Source of the DNA: a virus
Virus record (IMG/VR): IMGVR_UViG_3300044710_000137
Span: 20,546-84,545 of that record
Direction: 5' to 3' (one strand)
DNA length: 64,000 bases
A program made the translations under genes and the position numbers. The notes beneath the pieces were generated by a model. It saw only the letters and a program-made list of their open reading frames with translations. It was not told the DNA's origin and ran no database searches. Positions 751 to 32,158 of the stretch are shown piece after piece; the first letter of the stretch is position 1; every line of letters starts with the position of its first letter.

Positions 751-980
751 GGGGGATTGAGCGGCAGTTCAGCGACGTCCGGCAGCTCATACCGCGTGAA
801 GTGGGAATTGCCGCTATTCAGCCGGTTCATAAAATCCAGGTGGCGCCTGAAGTCCACCGACCGCGATCCGACTTCGCGGAGGATGGCGCCCCCGGCTAGA
901 CCCAACTGCCAGATCAGTCGCTGGTAATCCGCGCGGGTCATCTGGAGGATGACTTCATCGCCGTTTTCGGTGTAGGTCAT
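723..980 (-). CDS. hypothetical protein (likely start MTYTENG)
   Basis: ATGA overlap with the stop of the J-domain gene. Confidence 0.5.
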   Translation of the reverse strand: MTYTENGDEVILQMTRADYQRLIWQLGLAGGAILREVGSRSVDFRRHLDFMNRLNSGNSHFTRYELPDVAELPLNPPGGHAGDFA

Positions 981-1615
981 CCCGCCGCCTTCGCTTTGTC
1001 GCCAGCTTCCAGGATCGCCATCGCTTCTTGTAGCAGGTGAAATTGCTCCACGTTGGCCGTAGGTGCGTCCGGATGCCATTTCGCGGCCACCGCCCGGTAG
1101 GTCCGCTTACGCACCTCGATATCGTACAGCAGGGCGTCCTTACTGGCTAATCCGTGAACCGACAGAAACTGGGCAGCCGCATCCGCGCTCTCGAAATGCG
1201 TGCCCGCGCCCGGCGCCGCGATCTGCCGCCAGCCCTGGTACTGCTCGGCCCGTTTCGTGACTCCGTACCGATCTACCGCGCGCAGCGCTTGGAGAGATAG
1301 CCCGATGGCCCTAACGTTCGCCTGCCAGTCGGCATAGCGGTCGCACGGAAAGGAAAGTGGGCCATTGGCGCTCTCGAAGGTGAGGATCACGCCGGCGTCG
1401 GTGAACCTGGCGTTCGATTTCGGCCAGCCGTCGTTGCGGATATCCTGCCAGCCGATAGATGCTTGCAATACTACGTCTTTGGCGCGTAGCTTGGCCAGTT
1501 CGTATTCGAGGAGGTCGAGGGTTTTGATGTATGTAGAATTGAATGGGCTGGGCTTGCGCCCTCTGGTGCGCTCGCCCGGCCATTTCTCGATAGGCACAAA
1601 CCGGAGTTGAATCAT
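977..1615 (-). CDS. phage DnaJ/J-domain-containing protein
   Basis: C-terminal YR..AAKWHPD...F..LQEA J-domain motif; RAVDRYGVT..EQYQGW segment typical of phage J proteins. Confidence 0.8.
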   Translation of the reverse strand: MIQLRFVPIEKWPGERTRGRKPSPFNSTYIKTLDLLEYELAKLRAKDVVLQASIGWQDIRNDGWPKSNARFTDAGVILTFESANGPLSFPCDRYADWQANVRAIGLSLQALRAVDRYGVTKRAEQYQGWRQIAAPGAGTHFESADAAAQFLSVHGLASKDALLYDIEVRKRTYRAVAAKWHPDAPTANVEQFHLLQEAMAILEAGDKAKAAG

Positions 1616-1893: not shown

Positions 1894-2441
1894 ACCTGGC
1901 TAGCCCCGCTTTTAGCTCCCGTCCCTTTCCCCCGCTGTTGAAACCTTGCATTCCACGCGCCCATCATAGCTGCGTAAAATTGTTCTGTCCCGTGGCCCTC
2001 CGCTCCAATCAACTCGCCGTCTTTCCCTGGGTTGTCGTGTTTGAATCTCCCTAGCGCTATCGAGCGACCCTTGTTCCGTGAGAATTGGTCATCCACGGAG
2101 GATGTGGCCTTGTGTATCATGCGCTCGTTCCATTTGCCGGTTACCAGGTCCAACTGCATTAACCGGCAGACCGTTTCCCATGTGGTTTTCGTGCGGGTGA
2201 TCGAGATCTGTTCGTTGGGACCCCGGCGAAGCTGCGCTAATCTTTCACCTCCCCGAGGCTGGTCGATTTCAATTCCCAGGATAACGGGACCTTCGGCATT
2301 CAGCGCGGTCACCTTCGTTGCACCGGTTGCAAGCCAGACTTCACCCTTGCGTCCGATCTCTATTTCTCGGGTGACTTCTTTCTTTTGGTACCTAAAACCG
2401 AATCTATACTTCTGGCCGTTGAAGTCAAATTGCATATTCAC
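1890..2441 (-). CDS. hypothetical protein
   Basis: 183 aa, translationally coupled within the leftward operon. Confidence 0.6.
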   Translation of the reverse strand: MNMQFDFNGQKYRFGFRYQKKEVTREIEIGRKGEVWLATGATKVTALNAEGPVILGIEIDQPRGGERLAQLRRGPNEQISITRTKTTWETVCRLMQLDLVTGKWNERMIHKATSSVDDQFSRNKGRSIALGRFKHDNPGKDGELIGAEGHGTEQFYAAMMGAWNARFQQRGKGTGAKSGASQV

Positions 2442-2743
2442 ACCCTCTTGTCTTTAGTGAGCCTCGTTGCTTTGGTTGCCCGGGTGGCATCCAGGCCAAT
2501 GGTGGATGATTGTTTGTTGCGCGCCTTTGGCCGCATGCCCGGCTGGGGGTTGGGTGGCATAGTAATCACGGCGTAAACCGTGGTCCGCTCTATTCTGCCG
2601 ACTACGTATGGGCGCCCTTGCTTGGTGACCGTTGTCAGGACCGCCGGCACATCGCCTTGCATTATTACCGTGATTGTGCGCCCTCCGTGGAGCGGCGAGA
2701 GCGTGACGCGGTATCCCTCTCCGGGTTCTATCCTCATCCTCAC
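2438..2743 (-). CDS. hypothetical protein
   Basis: coupled overlaps at both ends; its 3' end contains a B element. Confidence 0.5.
   Translation of the reverse strand: MRMRIEPGEGYRVTLSPLHGGRTITVIMQGDVPAVLTTVTKQGRPYVVGRIERTTVYAVITMPPNPQPGMRPKARNKQSSTIGLDATRATKATRLTKDKRV
2454..2545 (+). repeat. family B element
   Basis: GTGAGCCTCG...GGCCAATGG...CCGCATGCCCGG. Confidence 0.85.
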
Positions 2744-2916
2744 GCGATGACTCTCTTTTTAGGCGTTCGCTTTGTCTTCTTGTCCGCCGCGGCCTTCTTG
2801 GGCCAGCGGGCAGCAGCACCCTTGCGCCCGATGGCGCTCAACTCTTCAGTGCTGAGGTTGTGGGCGCGCGCCTTCCCGCCCAGCTTGCCGATCTTCGCGG
2901 TGTCGATCAAGGCCAT
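2740..2916 (-). CDS. small basic putative DNA-binding protein (58 aa, below the ORF-track cutoff)
   Basis: MALIDTAKIGKLGGKARAHNLSTEELSAIGRKGAAARWPKK..., a GG.ARA..LS...KAA.ARW-type motif. Confidence 0.7.
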   Translation of the reverse strand: MALIDTAKIGKLGGKARAHNLSTEELSAIGRKGAAARWPKKAAADKKTKRTPKKRVIA

Positions 2917-2933
2917 AGTCTTTCAATTTGACA

Positions 2934-3048
2934 GACGGCGGGCGGGAGTCGAACCCGCGCTGGCCGCGAAGGAGCTTCCGGCTGCCCCCGCACGGCCTTG
3001 ACCTTGGTTCGTAGCCAAGCGCTCTGAAATCCACTGAGCTACCGCCGC
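2934..3048 (-). tRNA. tRNA-Arg(ACG) with a 44-nt variable region
   Basis: acceptor GCGGCGG/CCGCCGT; D stem GCTC/GAGC; anticodon arm CTTGG-CTACGAA-CCAAG; T arm GCGGG-TTCGACT-CCCGC; no encoded CCA. Confidence 0.85.
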
Positions 3049-3056
3049 TATTCCGA

Positions 3057-3157
3057 ATTGTATGCCTAGTCGGCATGCAACGTCAAGCCTAGCCGCTACG
3101 CTATTGAAAACGCACAGTAAACAACTATTGACACTACCTAGCCGCTAGGCATATACT
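3057..3157. promoter_or_regulatory. divergent sigma70-type promoters with three operator-like repeats
   Basis: minus TTGACG-N18-TACAAT; plus TTGACA(3128)-N18-TATACT(3152); CCTAGYCG-type 13-mers at 3065, 3088, 3137. Confidence 0.7.
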
Positions 3158-3180
3158 TGTGTCTGGAGGTACACATAACG

Positions 3181-3453
3181 ATGACCGATAACGCGAAACG
3201 GCGAGGGGGCGACGGGGTGAACCGGCGAAGCCTTACCGAAAAGCGGTACACCAACATCCTCGATGCCATGGCGATCACGCACAGGATGGTCGAGATTCTG
3301 GACAGCCGCGTGAAGATTCTTGAGTCTCTAGTCCCGCGCATGGAATGGCTCGACGATCAAATAACCACCTACCTCTCTAAGCAGGATCCAGCGATCCGGC
3401 GCGGAGCGACGGGCGCGGCATCAAACCCAAAAGACTTGAAAGGTGGAAATTAA
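3181..3453 (+). CDS. hypothetical protein
   Basis: GGAGG RBS; first gene after the rightward promoter. Confidence 0.55.
   Translation: MTDNAKRRGGDGVNRRSLTEKRYTNILDAMAITHRMVEILDSRVKILESLVPRMEWLDDQITTYLSKQDPAIRRGATGAASNPKDLKGGN
3387..3426 (+). repeat. family A hairpin element
   Basis: CCAGC-stem-GCGGCATCAAAC. Confidence 0.85.
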
Positions 3454-3927
3454 ATGACTCATCAACAACCCCTCGCCTTACCATCCGCCCCCCTTCAGTG
3501 CATGCACTGTGGCGGCACTCGCTCCTCAGTAGAACTGGAACGCCAAACCATCGACACCCGTTTCACGCGCTACTCCAAAGGACTGCCCTGGAGTAAAGCA
3601 CCCTGCTGTGAACCACCGGATATCGAAGCCCCTTTGCTCGACGACGAAGCCACCGTTCTGCGCTGCCCGGAATGCGCCGGCGAGGACTTCGATATCCGCT
3701 CCTACGATTTCGGCACCGACAACCAAACCGGCTACCACGACGCCGGCGAACGCTATGAATGCTCATGCGGCGCAACCGGCGACGCGGCGGACCTGGAGCG
3801 GGTAACCATCGTCCTCAATCACGAGCTGGCTCCGGAGTGGCCCGAGATCCCCGTGTTGAAGCCCATCGGCGTGAAGGTGCATAAGTTCACGGCGCCGGAA
3901 TTCACCAAGCTGCCGGAGGTGGCGTGA
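3454..3927 (+). CDS. zinc-ribbon hypothetical protein
   Basis: several CxxC motifs. Confidence 0.6.
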   Translation: MTHQQPLALPSAPLQCMHCGGTRSSVELERQTIDTRFTRYSKGLPWSKAPCCEPPDIEAPLLDDEATVLRCPECAGEDFDIRSYDFGTDNQTGYHDAGERYECSCGATGDAADLERVTIVLNHELAPEWPEIPVLKPIGVKVHKFTAPEFTKLPEVA

Positions 3928-6653: not shown

Positions 6654-7016
6654 ATGAAAGCAAAAAGCAAATCAGGCAAATCAGTTGTTGATGCCGCCGG
6701 GGTCACGCCAGTGCCCCCGGCTGGTAGAACCGCACCGTCGCTTAAAGAGGCACCACCCTTTACTAGGGCGCAGAAAGACGAGGTGCTGCTCCTTGTATTC
6801 AGTATTTTATCCGCGGCTCACGGAATTGTGGAGGCGGCTATCGAAGACCGGGCTATTTCGGCACATGACGTCGAGTCTTACTACGGCACTTGGACCGAAC
6901 TACTCTGCACGGTGGACGGCGGCTATTATCAGGGTAGTTTGCTACGCGGCGATCTCTTCGACGACATCGAAGCCCGCTGCTTTCCTGGTGTGAAAATCAA
7001 AGGCGGCCCAGAATGA
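6654..7016 (+). CDS. hypothetical protein with an A-element-encoded N-terminus
   Basis: GGAG RBS; MKAKSKSGKSVVDAAGVTPVPPAG. Confidence 0.6.
   Translation: MKAKSKSGKSVVDAAGVTPVPPAGRTAPSLKEAPPFTRAQKDEVLLLVFSILSAAHGIVEAAIEDRAISAHDVESYYGTWTELLCTVDGGYYQGSLLRGDLFDDIEARCFPGVKIKGGPE
6687..6725 (-). repeat. family A hairpin element
   Basis: GTTGATGCCGC...GCTGGT on +. Confidence 0.9.
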
Positions 7017-10384: not shown

Positions 10385-10424
10385 ACCAGCGCGGGACACG
10401 GATTGTGGCCCGCGCGGCAGCAAC
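10385..10424 (+). repeat. family A hairpin element
   Basis: ACCAGC...GCGGCAGCAAC. Confidence 0.9.
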
Positions 10425-20163: not shown

Positions 20164-20239
20164 GCCCTTGGGTAGAGAAATGGTAACTCGCCGGGAATAG
20201 ACTCCTGGAGGTGTGGGTTCGAATCCCACCCCGTTGGCT
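20164..20239 (+). tRNA. degenerate tRNA-like gene (pseudo-tRNA)
   Basis: T arm GTGGG-TTCGAAT-CCCAC and D arm GAG-AAATGGTAA-CTC are intact; 8-nt anticodon loop AATAGACT; mismatched acceptor stem. Confidence 0.55.
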
Positions 20240-20750: not shown

Positions 20751-21320
20751 GTGATCCTGGAGTTTCCGACCCCCGACCCCCGATCCCCGACCCCGGCAGC
20801 GGGCCGGCCGCTGCCCTGGTATGCCCTGCGCGTCAAAGCCCTCCACGAATTCCACGTCGAGCGCGAGTTGTGCCGGTACGGTATCGAACCCTACCTGCCG
20901 ACACGTAAAAGGAAACACTGGCGCAACACCGAAGTGGACGTACCCCTGATCCCTGGCTACGTCTTCGCGCGCGCGGAAGCTTGTGATATATATGCCACAC
21001 TGCGTTGGACCAACTGGCTCACCAATATCTTGGGAGACCGGCATGGCCCTACCGAAATCCCCGCCGATCAAATCGAAACGCTCCGCCTGATGGTCGCCAA
21101 TTCGAAAATCGAAGTAATCCCGCTGGCCGATATCTGGAAGGGCGGGGAAGAGGTCGAGGTCGTGAGCGGCCCGCTGCAGGGCGCCAAGGGGCGCGTGGCC
21201 AGAGTCAAGAACAAGACGCAGCTCGTCATCTTCATCGAGATGCTGGGATCCGCGATCTGCACGGAACTGGACGCCGCCAGCGTGCGCGTCATTCCCGTGG
21301 ATCTACCGCTCGCGGCGTAG
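20751..21320 (+). CDS. NusG/RfaH/UpxY-family transcription antiterminator
   Basis: NGN domain (WYALRVK...E, PL.PGYVF) plus KOW domain (GEEVEVVSGPLQG..G.V). Confidence 0.9.
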   Translation: MILEFPTPDPRSPTPAAGRPLPWYALRVKALHEFHVERELCRYGIEPYLPTRKRKHWRNTEVDVPLIPGYVFARAEACDIYATLRWTNWLTNILGDRHGPTEIPADQIETLRLMVANSKIEVIPLADIWKGGEEVEVVSGPLQGAKGRVARVKNKTQLVIFIEMLGSAICTELDAASVRVIPVDLPLAA

Positions 21321-23333: not shown

Positions 23334-23960
23334 GTGAAAGACAAAACTCCACCGACGGACACAACAAAAGAGCAGCTCGACGAGTCCTTGATAAACCCCG
23401 CTCTCATGGCCCGCATCCAGGCTATGGGATCTCCCATCGTTCCAGGACCGGCCCAAATAGAATTGGACAAGCGCGCATCGAAGAAACAGCGCATGCTGAT
23501 AGCCTTCGTGGTGACCGCGGGAAACGTCACGAGGGCAGCTAAAGCCGCCGGCATCGACCGCGACACCCACTACGCCTGGCTCAAGGACGATTCCGAATAC
23601 GCCGCGTCGTATCGTGATCGTGTACCCAACGCCGCCGGCGTCCTCGAGGACGAAGCCCGCAGACGGGCAGTCGAAGGTACACTCAAGGGCGTATACCACA
23701 AAGGCACGCTCGTAGACATGGAAGTGGAGTACTCGGATCGGCTCCTGATCCAGCTTCTGAAAGCCCACCACCCAGCGCATAAGCCCACCCTGACCATCGA
23801 CGGCCGGGGTAAGAACGGCGCCATCGCGATAGAACAAACCACCGCCGAAGACCTCGCCAAGCTGCCGGAAGAAACACTCCTGGAGCAAATCAAAGTGGCC
23901 CGCGAAACCCTCGAATGGCTAAAAGCGAGCACCCATGCAACAATCGAGCGGGCTCCCTAA
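23334..23960 (+). CDS. terS: terminase small subunit
   Basis: GNVTRAAKAAGIDR.T.Y.W...D; LEDEARRRAVEG; YSDRLLI.LLKA; directly upstream of TerL. Confidence 0.85.
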   Translation: MKDKTPPTDTTKEQLDESLINPALMARIQAMGSPIVPGPAQIELDKRASKKQRMLIAFVVTAGNVTRAAKAAGIDRDTHYAWLKDDSEYAASYRDRVPNAAGVLEDEARRRAVEGTLKGVYHKGTLVDMEVEYSDRLLIQLLKAHHPAHKPTLTIDGRGKNGAIAIEQTTAEDLAKLPEETLLEQIKVARETLEWLKASTHATIERAP

Positions 23961-23968
23961 AGGAGCTC

Positions 23969-24697
23969 TTGGAACTCAGGGCGGAATTGGAAGCTCAACT
24001 CGAGAAGCGCAATACCACCATCCGCGAGATCCGGACCAATAGGATTCAAGACCAGTTTCCTTTCACCGGTCCGTTCCGCCGCGAGCTCTACCCCAAGCAC
24101 ATGGAGTTCTTCGCCGCGGGCGCGGAACACACGGAGCGCTGCTTTATGGCGGGAAACCGCGTGGGCAAGACCCGGGCGGGCGCCTGCGAAGCGACGTACC
24201 ACCTCACGGGAAGCTACCCCGATTGGTGGGTGGGGAAGCGCTTCGATCATCCTGTCGAGGGCTGGGCGGCCGGCTCTACAAACCAAACGGTACGGGATAT
24301 CATTCAGGCTGAATTGCTGGGCAAACTGGCGCCGGACAAGGAATCGCGGCCCGAGGATCCCATCGGGCTCGGTACCGGCATGATCCCGGCTGATGCGATC
24401 CGCGCCATCAACCGGCGATCCGGCGGCGTCAAGGACTCGATCGAATCGGCGTATATCCGGCATGTCTCCGGAGGGACGTCGCTTCTCGGATTCAAAACTT
24501 ACGACCAGGGGCGGCGTAGCTTCGAGGGCACCGGCAAGCATTTCGTATGGGTGGACGAGGAATGCCCGTTCGACGTCTATATCGAAGCGCTGACGCGTAC
24601 GATGACCACGAAGGGGATCATCTACCTGACGTTCACGCCGTTGAGGGGAATGTCAGAAGTGGTCCTGCACTTTCTTCCCAGCACGACGCTGGATTGA
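23969..24697 (+). CDS. terL: terminase large subunit, N-terminal ATPase part (P22 gp2-like)
   Basis: Walker A MAGNRVGKT, Walker B FVWVDEE, motif III LTFTP; probable TTG start after AAGGAG (ORF open from 23915). Confidence 0.92.
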   Translation: MELRAELEAQLEKRNTTIREIRTNRIQDQFPFTGPFRRELYPKHMEFFAAGAEHTERCFMAGNRVGKTRAGACEATYHLTGSYPDWWVGKRFDHPVEGWAAGSTNQTVRDIIQAELLGKLAPDKESRPEDPIGLGTGMIPADAIRAINRRSGGVKDSIESAYIRHVSGGTSLLGFKTYDQGRRSFEGTGKHFVWVDEECPFDVYIEALTRTMTTKGIIYLTFTPLRGMSEVVLHFLPSTTLD

Positions 24698-29795: not shown

Positions 29796-29835
29796 ACCAG
29801 CGCGGGACACGGCTTGTGGCCCGCGCGGCATCAAC
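29796..29835 (+). repeat. family A hairpin element
   Basis: ACCAGC...GCGGCATCAAC. Confidence 0.9.
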
Positions 29836-31369: not shown

Positions 31370-32158
31370 GTGCCGTTTTTGTGCACCTGCACTTGGGAAG
31401 AGGTGCCCCATCTCGGTGGAAAAGAGAAAACCGAACTCCTCCTCACCTATCCTCCCCACCAGCGCGATGCCCGAACCAAAGGGGTACCGCAGTTAGGCGC
31501 GGGCGCGGTCTATCCGATGCTCGAAGAGGAAATCCTCTACGATTATTTCGACATTCCACCATACTGGCCGCGAATGTTTGCGTTAGACGTAGGTTGGAAT
31601 CGTTCGGCAGCACTGTGGGGCGCGCTGGACCGGGACAGCGACCGGCTGTTCATCTATAGTGAACACTACCAGGGCAGGCTGACGCCACACGAGCACGCGC
31701 GCATCATCAAGGCGCGTGGGTCCTGGATACCCGGCGTAATCGATCCAGCCTCGCGCGGATCGAGCCAAGCGGACGGCGAAAAGATTGTCGAACTCTACCG
31801 CGCGGAAGGGTTGGATCTCACCTACGCGGACAATAACGTCGAAGCCGGCATCTATGACGTTTGGCAGCGGCTACAGAACAACCGGCTGAAGATTTGCAAG
31901 ACGCTCATCAATCTGCGCCAGGAATACCGGCTCTACCGGCGCAACCCGAAAGACGGGCATGTCGTCAAGCCGAGATTGCCCCAGGAATTGCCTGAAGGGC
32001 GAACGGCCGCGGAGTACGGCGATCATTTGCTCGACTGCCTCCGCTATATGTGCCGTGGATTGCAAGTTATGAAACAGGCGCCCGTGGTGCCGAAGCGCGG
32101 TCCCGGATCGCAAGCCGAATGGAAGCAGCCAACCGGGCCCCTCGGTTGGATGGCGTAA
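31370..32158 (+). CDS. terL: terminase large subunit, C-terminal part (lid/linker plus RNase H-like nuclease)
   Basis: TWEEVPHL...YPPHQRDAR.KG.P.LG.G.VY; ALDVGW; DPAS; DHLLDCLRY; GTG start coupled to an upstream TAG. Confidence 0.92.
   Translation: MPFLCTCTWEEVPHLGGKEKTELLLTYPPHQRDARTKGVPQLGAGAVYPMLEEEILYDYFDIPPYWPRMFALDVGWNRSAALWGALDRDSDRLFIYSEHYQGRLTPHEHARIIKARGSWIPGVIDPASRGSSQADGEKIVELYRAEGLDLTYADNNVEAGIYDVWQRLQNNRLKICKTLINLRQEYRLYRRNPKDGHVVKPRLPQELPEGRTAAEYGDHLLDCLRYMCRGLQVMKQAPVVPKRGPGSQAEWKQPTGPLGWMA

Follow-up and report, generated by a model that had tools for sequence, protein, structure and literature searches.

Class II tRNAs (isotypes Leu, Ser, Tyr, and Sec) carry an extra arm of roughly 10 to 24 nt in the variable region; this arm projects from the only site at which the L-shaped molecule is known to accommodate added RNA. 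Engineered Escherichia coli tRNAs in which a long variable arm is tipped with a hairpin aptamer remain translationally active according to the accessible part of one study (PMC7590224), which also describes no more than marginal activity for tRNAs with the Spinach aptamer in the variable loop, a failure of most bulkier inserts, and a block of SerRS by a bulge in the arm stem. The literature on phage tRNAs and on long variable arms contained, at the level of listings and abstracts, no case of a class I tRNA that naturally bears a long hairpin arm.

Here, we analyzed a phage gene of the tRNA-Arg(ACG) type with such an arm in its variable region. The original prediction, made from the DNA letters, had described this arm as unlike those of known class I or class II tRNAs, which is consistent with the collections and with the listings and abstracts that were searched. 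A 36-nt hairpin in place of the small variable loop on an Arg body is a design found nowhere else in the searched collections, and its use is putative.

Results

The phage genome and the window analyzed

The window, i.e., the whole stretch of 64,000 nt under study, was taken from an IMG/VR virus record of 84,545 bp, in which it spans bases 20546-84545; according to CheckV, the record is 97% complete. The genome has a GC content of 56-62% and belongs to an uncultured phage; the sequencing runs containing the record are soil and estuary metagenomes only. Encoded are a P22-like portal and coat protein, a terminase, and a NusG-like antiterminator, and a 3397-aa ORF lies directly upstream of the window. 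The two terminase domains PF03237 and PF17289 were found in ORFs approximately 6.7 kb apart, which suggests that the terminase gene is split or interrupted. The sigma-70-type promoter-like sites and the tRNA body described below suggest that the host is a bacterium, possibly one of the proteobacteria. Among the proteins scanned, a set that covered only part of the small ORFs, there was no integrase, reverse transcriptase, RNA ligase, synthetase, or CCA-adding enzyme. The features discussed in the following are compiled in Table 1.

Table 1. Features of the 64,000-nt window, with positions counted from its first base
Feature	Position	Strand	Basis
tRNA-Arg(ACG)-type gene, 115 nt, expanded variable arm	2934..3048	-	RF00005; cloverleaf and arm MFE fold
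Anticodon ACG in loop CUACGAA	3010..3012	-	cmscan alignment
44-nt variable region (G44 U45, CAA, hairpin, A, G46, C48; numbering of this study)	2959..3002	-	cmscan; strict parse
36-nt hairpin: 7 bp, C/U mismatch, 6 bp (2 G.U), 8-nt loop AGCCGGAA	2962..2997	-	fold
Sigma-70-like promoter TTGACG-18-TACAAT, 10/12 consensus	3057..3086	-	consensus scan; predicted site
Divergent promoter-like site TTGACA-18-TATACT, 11/12, for rightward operon	3128..3157	+	consensus scan
58-aa basic ORF, 17 nt past the tRNA 3' end	2740..2916	-	ORF list
Degenerate tRNA-like gene	20166-20238	+	RF00005, 37.6 bits
NusG-like antiterminator, head of the packaging and structural genes	20751-21320	+	PF02357, E = 7.5e-15; phrog_6386, E = 4e-25
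Terminase large-subunit N-terminal domain (PF03237)	23915-24697	+	domain match
Terminase RNaseH-like C-terminal domain (PF17289)	31370-32158	+	domain match

Apart from the tRNA-Arg gene, the phage has a single tRNA-like gene (20166-20238). It contains two mismatches in the acceptor stem and an 8-nt anticodon loop, and ARAGORN assigned a two-base anticodon to it. This gene lies within a 432-aa minus-strand ORF without family matches, just after a GGTGGCTGG repeat block and approximately 500 nt before the NusG-like gene. Its degenerate state makes decay of tRNA genes in this genome plausible.

The genome also contains a hairpin repeat with the conserved flanks CCAGC ... GCGGCAKCAA, for which a loose pattern gave 26 matches (e.g., window 6688-6724, 10386-10423, and 29797-29834). 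The 5-bp outer stem of this repeat varies between copies yet stays paired, and copies are present on both strands, often inside ORF ends. Further repeat families of the genome were designated D1, D2, D6, and D8.

A tRNA-Arg(ACG) gene with an intact body

The covariance model of the Rfam tRNA family RF00005 matched the minus strand of the window (3048..2934) in cmscan with 50.5 bits at a gathering score of 29, and the match covered model positions 1 to 71 of 71. E values were 7.2e-08 for the 64-kb window and 3.4e-10 for a stretch of 301 nt. The tRNA-Arg(ACG) body that had been predicted at 2934-3048 was thus recovered, its anticodon loop being CUACGAA, and the full-length match, obtained despite the penalty for a 41-nt insertion, supports a reading of the gene as a tRNA-Arg with a fifth arm.

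In the cmscan alignment, the acceptor stem is GCGGCGG/CCGCCGU, the D arm GCUC-AGUGGAUUUCA-GAGC, the anticodon arm CUUGG-CUACGAA-CCAAG, and the T arm GCGGG-UUCGACU-CCCGC. The 7-bp acceptor, 4-bp D, 5-bp anticodon, and 5-bp T stems were all present both in this alignment and in the minimum free energy (MFE) fold, and a strict cloverleaf parse gave one solution with a variable region of 44 nt. The anticodon loop has 7 nt with U33 and a purine at position 37 (A37). Inspection of the alignment by eye revealed a standard core with U8, A14, G15 together with C48, G18 G19, A21, U33, A37, G53, a UUCGA T loop, and C61; outside the arm, no damaging change was observed in the gene. The G1.U72 pair of the acceptor stem and the lack of an encoded CCA, both noted in the original prediction, were read directly from the sequence, in which the discriminator C73 is followed by UGU.

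By E. coli rules, A20, C35, and G36 are the Arg identity elements for arginyl-tRNA synthetase (ArgRS). All three are present in the phage gene, with A20 directly after G18 G19 in the D loop AGUGGAUUUCA. Position 73 is C rather than a purine, and the variable region has 44 nt rather than the 4-5 nt of a class I variable loop.

The full 115 nt folded into the cloverleaf plus one long hairpin with an MFE of -56.3 kcal/mol (z = -1.81; 9 of 200 shuffles were equally good). These shuffle-based fold statistics are modest; the covariance-model score is strong evidence for a tRNA. This is a real, intact gene, whose arm occupies a position at which a tRNA can accommodate one. All details of the original description that were checked proved correct.

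ARAGORN in default mode made no call at this gene. The arm was therefore shortened in silico from the loop outward, and the variants were rerun. All eight variants with a variable region of up to 26 nt were called as tRNA-Arg(acg) over the whole gene, as were both variants without the hairpin; among the seven longer variants, three remained uncalled and four were called with other ends. The gene-finder check suggested along with the original prediction hence failed for the native gene and succeeded for the trimmed one, and the miss is explained by a length limit of the program, since trimmed variants were called over the whole gene and longer ones were not. This miss marks a blind spot of the default mode even if the gene should turn out to be a decoy or dead.

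A 13-bp hairpin at the extra-arm site

The variable region folded as had been predicted, with the stems GGCCGUG/CGCGGCC and GGGGGC/GCUCCU, the latter with two G.U pairs, separated by a C/U mismatch and closed by the 8-nt loop; the arm comprises 13 bp in total. Taken alone, the 36-nt hairpin had a folding energy of -23.5 kcal/mol and represented 93% of the ensemble (z = -2.79; 1 of 200 shuffles was as good). It is connected to the body by single-stranded linkers, with five unpaired nt before the arm stem and three after it.

In the cmscan alignment, 41 of the 44 variable-region nt were scored as an insertion, located after the first variable-loop position, with the second position deleted, and before the last two. 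The same insertion point was obtained for E. coli tRNA-Leu leuT, in which it is the model position of the 12-nt arm. The hairpin therefore leaves the core at the natural extra-arm site, between positions 45 and 46. The insertion site is that of class II tRNAs; the ACG anticodon and the 44-nt variable region are not those of the Leu, Ser, Tyr, and Sec isotypes and their arms. To our knowledge, an arm of 13 bp is about twice as long as any natural class II arm.

The stretch CCGGA in the loop AGCCGGAA also occurs in CUCCGGA, the anticodon loop of E. coli tRNA-Arg(CCG) argX; the probability of this by chance was roughly estimated at a few percent, post hoc. The loop is unlike an anticodon-type 7-nt loop in that it has 8 nt, shows G at the would-be U33, and sits on a 13-bp stem. 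We take the resemblance to the tRNA-Arg(CCG) loop as a weak, post hoc likeness, and the true anticodon already provides C35 and G36.

As a discrete and stable module between two single-stranded linkers, the hairpin might be a removable insert that is excised in an intron-like manner or cut by RNase III or another double-strand RNase, leaving a tRNA of normal size or a split one. We consider this highly improbable. The helix is continuous (7 bp, a 1x1 mismatch, and 6 bp) and lacks the bulge-helix-bulge of an archaeal-type intron, i.e., two 3-nt bulges flanking a 4-bp helix. No Rfam family other than tRNA matched the gene or the arm at E up to 1. Thirteen bp with a mismatch are short for RNase III, and we know of no tRNA splicing ligation path in bacteria that would serve such an insert. 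ARAGORN in intron mode offered a tRNA-Arg(gcg) with a 20-nt intron, a reading that was rejected in favor of the superior, canonical cmscan reading because its anticodon stem contains mismatches. Of the three functions proposed in the original prediction, namely a nuclease-resistant or decoy tRNA, a tRNA scaffold carrying a regulatory hairpin, and an excised insert, the last is the least likely because the arm is a plain helix without intron-like ends, belongs to no Rfam family, and is found in a bacterial-looking phage.

Relationship of the tRNA body to bacterial and phage tRNA-Arg

BLAST analysis of the gene against 301 Pseudomonadota genomes showed that the 5' 47 nt were 85% identical to the best tRNA-Arg(ACG) matches, and matches at E up to 0.01 were obtained in 97 of the 301 genomes. 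In the tRNA-Arg(ACG) genes of the Pseudomonadota loci L317-L322, all 17 nt of the anticodon arm are the same as in the phage gene. From U8 to position 45, identities of 87-90% over 36-43 nt were found to tRNA-Arg of the cyanophages S-PM2 (annotated as ACG) and S-CRM01 and of Bacillus phage P59, in all of which the anticodon arm is near-identical to that of the gene studied here. In none of the 301 Pseudomonadota was a match found with the body joined to the arm, and a blastn search of the 5' half of the tRNA against E. coli genomes gave nothing at E up to 1.

The phage gene has the A20 D arm, the 7/5 acceptor and T stems, and the canonical T loop in common with bacterial tRNA-Arg(ACG) and phage tRNA-Arg. 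The bacterial copies at L317-L322 have a 5-nt variable loop (GGGUC), an encoded CCA, and a G1-C72 pair; position 73 is A in six of their seven distinct sequences and G in one (L322), whereas it is C in the phage gene. The latter further differs from the proteobacterial copies by the 44-nt variable region, two extra D-loop bases, G1.U72, and the lack of CCA. As judged from these alignments, the gene is a proteobacterial-type tRNA-Arg(ACG) apart from the differences in the arm, the D loop, G1.U72, C73, and CCA.

Search for arm-bearing relatives

The exact 36-mer of the arm was absent from IMG/VR, and no second copy with up to three mismatches was present in the 84.5-kb genome. Four patterns were then used for searches in larger collections. 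Pattern 1 (anticodon loop and two stem pairs, 28-58 nt, T loop) gave 45 loci in IMG/VR, of which 41 belong to a different tRNA-like family without a D arm and four are tRNAs followed by a second T arm. Pattern 2, which differed from pattern 1 by a gap of 42-62 nt, gave 47 loci in the JGI metagenomes. By inspection, these comprised unrelated DNA, tRNAs in tandem or duplicated, and 3' ends resembling those of tmRNA; a class I Arg tRNA with one hairpin was not among them.

Pattern 3 (D arm, 58-88 nt, T loop) gave at least 117 loci in IMG/VR. Among the matches listed, 96 of 119 had intact acceptor and T stems and represented 87 distinct sequences. By a strict parse, 29 of these 87 listed sequences had their extra RNA in the anticodon loop, three in the D loop, and one at position 26, while two were ambiguous and 52 could not be parsed; none of the listed sequences had extra RNA in the variable region. 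With a relaxed parse, three of the 87 were possible variable-region cases among the matches listed, but in none of these three did an Arg body carry a strong single hairpin. The nearest among the matches listed was L173, which has the anticodon ACG and whose 37-nt region has a folding energy of only -3.3 kcal/mol. Pattern 4, in which the D arm, the ACG loop, and the T loop were tied together, gave three viral loci (IMG/VR) and six genomic loci (GTDB); these were L173, two archaeal intron-bearing tRNAs, and duplicated or chimeric genes, and none had the arm.

The searches also brought up other unusual tRNA-like genes. The 41 D-armless genes from pattern 1 (within L001-L045) are about 78-90 nt long and lie inside phage tRNA arrays; they show an ACG anticodon loop, lack a normal D arm, encode CCA, and have a conserved AAGGUAACUGGA stretch that follows the anticodon arm. 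Examples are L028 (2083-2160), L016 (161-240), L006, and L173 (6509-6597). Twelve of the loci L001-L045 were scanned, and L028, L016, and L044 had an Rfam match of 29-41 bits over the pattern match. At L025 (3429-3528, minus strand), a 100-nt gene with a UAU anticodon has two small hairpins in the variable region, one of them showing GAU. L032 (5779-5922, plus strand) contains a 144-nt phage tRNA match with approximately 70 extra nt. The 87 distinct tRNA-like genes from pattern 3 (L106-L222, IMG/VR) are 94-124 nt long with 20-50 extra nt among the matches listed; 29 of these parse as short anticodon-loop insertions, and many share a hairpin followed by ACAGCAA.

Relatives of the phage were sought with its proteins. 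Portal proteins with 82, 75, 74, and 61% identity, originating from JGI and ENA assemblies, were found in a protein database; true relatives of the phage have therefore already been sequenced. No portal with more than 38% identity was found in IMG/VR or the phage collection, and megablast and blastn gave no relatives of the tRNA region among phage records. A neighboring 183-aa protein had no relative in IMG/VR, and a 76-aa frame overlapping the tRNA, used as a protein query, revealed no candidate relative. The DnaJ-like neighbor (window 977-1615) had many homologues, and 12 IMG/VR loci with up to 75% identity were compared by tblastn. They had only the DnaJ-like gene and two weak others in common with the window and were rejected as relatives of the region; Rfam scans of 11 of the 12 loci (all except L058) found no tRNA. 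No RNA run was among the sequencing runs listed as containing the phage. Within the sequencing data, the arm was covered only by contigs of one DNA run, the probable source, and among the listed near-identical pieces from two other DNA runs, none covered positions 2934-3048.

A search for homologues with a covarying arm, put forward in the original prediction as a way to check the gene, thus came back empty: no arm-bearing homologue was found in IMG/VR (in one scan, among the matches listed), the JGI metagenomes, GTDB, or the 301 Pseudomonadota, so that no conservation or covariation showing selection on the arm was obtained. Within the limits of exact-pattern searching, the arm is a singleton.

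Possible origins of the arm

Three sources of the arm were tried and rejected. The arm is not a copy of the genome hairpin repeat: it lacks the paired CCAGC/GCGGCAKCAA flanks, has a core different from the 5 bp plus 3 bp plus tetraloop of the repeat, and is absent among the 26 matches. It is not a duplication of the tRNA body, as local alignments against both halves in both orientations were no better than those of shuffles (p = 0.2-0.9). A bacterial REP-like repeat was dismissed on the best three partial matches fetched from the 301 Pseudomonadota (L323-L325), which lie in stop-free frames and do not fold into the hairpin of the arm. Repeats at the borders of the arm (AAGGUC/AAGGCC and CGCGG..CGCGG) were at the level expected by chance in a rough count.

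These results bear on a recent neutral or disabling insertion, in which a GC-rich palindrome would have entered the variable loop of a captured tRNA-Arg by replication slippage or as a small element, and the gene would now be a pseudogene or a poor tRNA that has not yet decayed. We regard this as a serious but doubtful possibility. It is favored by the singleton status of the arm, nothing like it being found in the pattern scans of IMG/VR (one of them judged among the matches listed), JGI, and GTDB or in the BLAST of 301 Pseudomonadota, by the degenerate state of the second tRNA-like gene (20166-20238), and by the departure of C73, G1.U72, and the missing CCA from the bacterial copies. However, the remainder of the gene is undamaged, and the arm sits at the single structurally permissive site, although an insertion would also survive longest there. 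Furthermore, the arm copies neither a repeat of the genome nor the tRNA body, and the three partial matches L323-L325 inside open frames look like chance.

Predicted promoter and putative early operon

A promoter directly upstream of the tRNA gene, as the original prediction had it, was confirmed as a predicted site by a consensus scan (Table 1), which found three promoter-like sites in the region 2400-3600 at an expectation of 0.6. The -10 hexamer TACAAT ends 8 nt before G1, and any 5' leader would hence be 1-3 nt long. The genes of the divergent rightward operon include a PD-(D/E)XK nuclease. Operator-like repeats (CCTAGCCGCTAGG and variants) are located within and between the divergent promoter-like sites (window 3057-3157).

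The 58-aa ORF behind the tRNA gene showed a weak KGG motif (E = 0.006, below the cut-off) and a match to phrog_2384 (E = 4e-4). It heads a run of minus-strand ORFs that extends to window position 1 and includes the DnaJ-like protein. From the spacing, we infer that the tRNA is the first product of an early-looking operon and is cotranscribed with the 58-aa ORF.

For a 149-nt transcript, an alternative MFE fold was obtained in which the arm pairs with the start region of the 58-aa ORF (-65.3 kcal/mol, compared with -56.3 kcal/mol for the cloverleaf). Sequestration of this start by the arm was rejected as a function of the arm, since 77% of 3000 random genome windows gave a duplex energy at least as good as the -22.4 kcal/mol obtained for the arm and the start region.

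The position of the gene as first element of the transcription unit, with the 58-aa ORF 17 nt behind it, would also fit a non-decoding, tRNA-shaped RNA. Such an RNA might act as a decoy or sponge for tRNA-targeting host nucleases or a tRNA-binding enzyme, or as a structured 5' leader of the leftward early operon that sets its processing and stability; the arm would prevent its use by the ribosome or provide a binding site for a partner. Some support for the decoy version comes from defence nucleases that cleave tRNAs in the variable loop: in the accessible parts of the respective reports, Septu cuts the variable loop of tRNA-Tyr (PMC13096335) and VapC52 that of a tRNA (PMC13273310). Nevertheless, we consider a non-decoding RNA unlikely. 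There is no sequence feature that disables decoding or charging, pairing of the arm with the 58-aa ORF start region was no better than chance, and the proteins scanned, which covered only part of the small ORFs, included no tRNA-related enzyme.

Discussion

Our tentative reading, to which we assign somewhat less than an even chance, is that the gene is an expressed tRNA-Arg(ACG) that tolerates or uses a fifth helical arm. It is favored because the gene is intact, the arm is at a permissive site, and engineered hairpin-armed tRNAs work in E. coli (PMC7590224, accessible part). Against a working tRNA-Arg stand C73 and G1.U72, which differ from bacterial tRNA-Arg(ACG), the 13-bp arm, and the degenerate second tRNA-like gene.

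What was observed is the sequence, its fold, and the site at which the arm is placed; from this, we infer the following course of transcription, processing, charging, and decoding, and a possible role of the arm. Transcription by host RNA polymerase would begin 1-3 nt ahead of tRNA position 1, driven by the strong early-type promoter. The body would fold as a normal cloverleaf, and the 36-nt hairpin would project between positions 45 and 46 and leave the core undisturbed. Host enzymes would trim the ends and add CCA, arginyl-tRNA synthetase could use A20, C35, and G36, and A34 would be deaminated to inosine. The mature tRNA would then read CGU, CGC, and CGA, which make up the majority of the phage Arg codons (CGC, CGT, and CGA: 904 of 1560, or 58%, in a crude ORF set). 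The arm may either be simply tolerated or serve as a handle or shield that distinguishes the phage tRNA from the tRNA-Arg of the host. If the tRNA is charged and used, this would mean that bacterial translation accepts a class I tRNA with a 13-bp side arm, and the molecule could provide a natural template for tagged tRNAs in synthetic biology.

A quite improbable version of a working tRNA is that the arm acts as a natural docking hairpin. A protein of the phage or the host that binds the 13-bp arm or the CCGGA loop would then let the phage charge, protect, or regulate its own tRNA-Arg separately; for example, the phage tRNA-Arg might be spared while a defence nuclease destroys that of the host. 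If true, such a docking hairpin would be the wild counterpart of the engineered aptamer-tagged tRNAs.

Besides the bacterial and phage tRNA-Arg genes, two described systems come close to the gene with its fifth arm. The class II tRNA leuT has its extra arm at the same RF00005 position; however, its inserted stretch has 12 nt compared with 41 nt here, and the body of the phage gene is that of a class I tRNA-Arg. In the engineered aptamer-tagged tRNAs (Mukai 2020, PMC7590224), as far as the accessible part of that work goes, a hairpin was grafted onto the variable arm and the product still works in E. coli translation. The bulged arm stem among these engineered tRNAs may be compared with the C/U mismatch in the stem of the phage arm. 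The chassis used there is a synthetic allo-tRNA (9/3) with known protein partners, whereas the phage gene is natural and has a 7/5 body.
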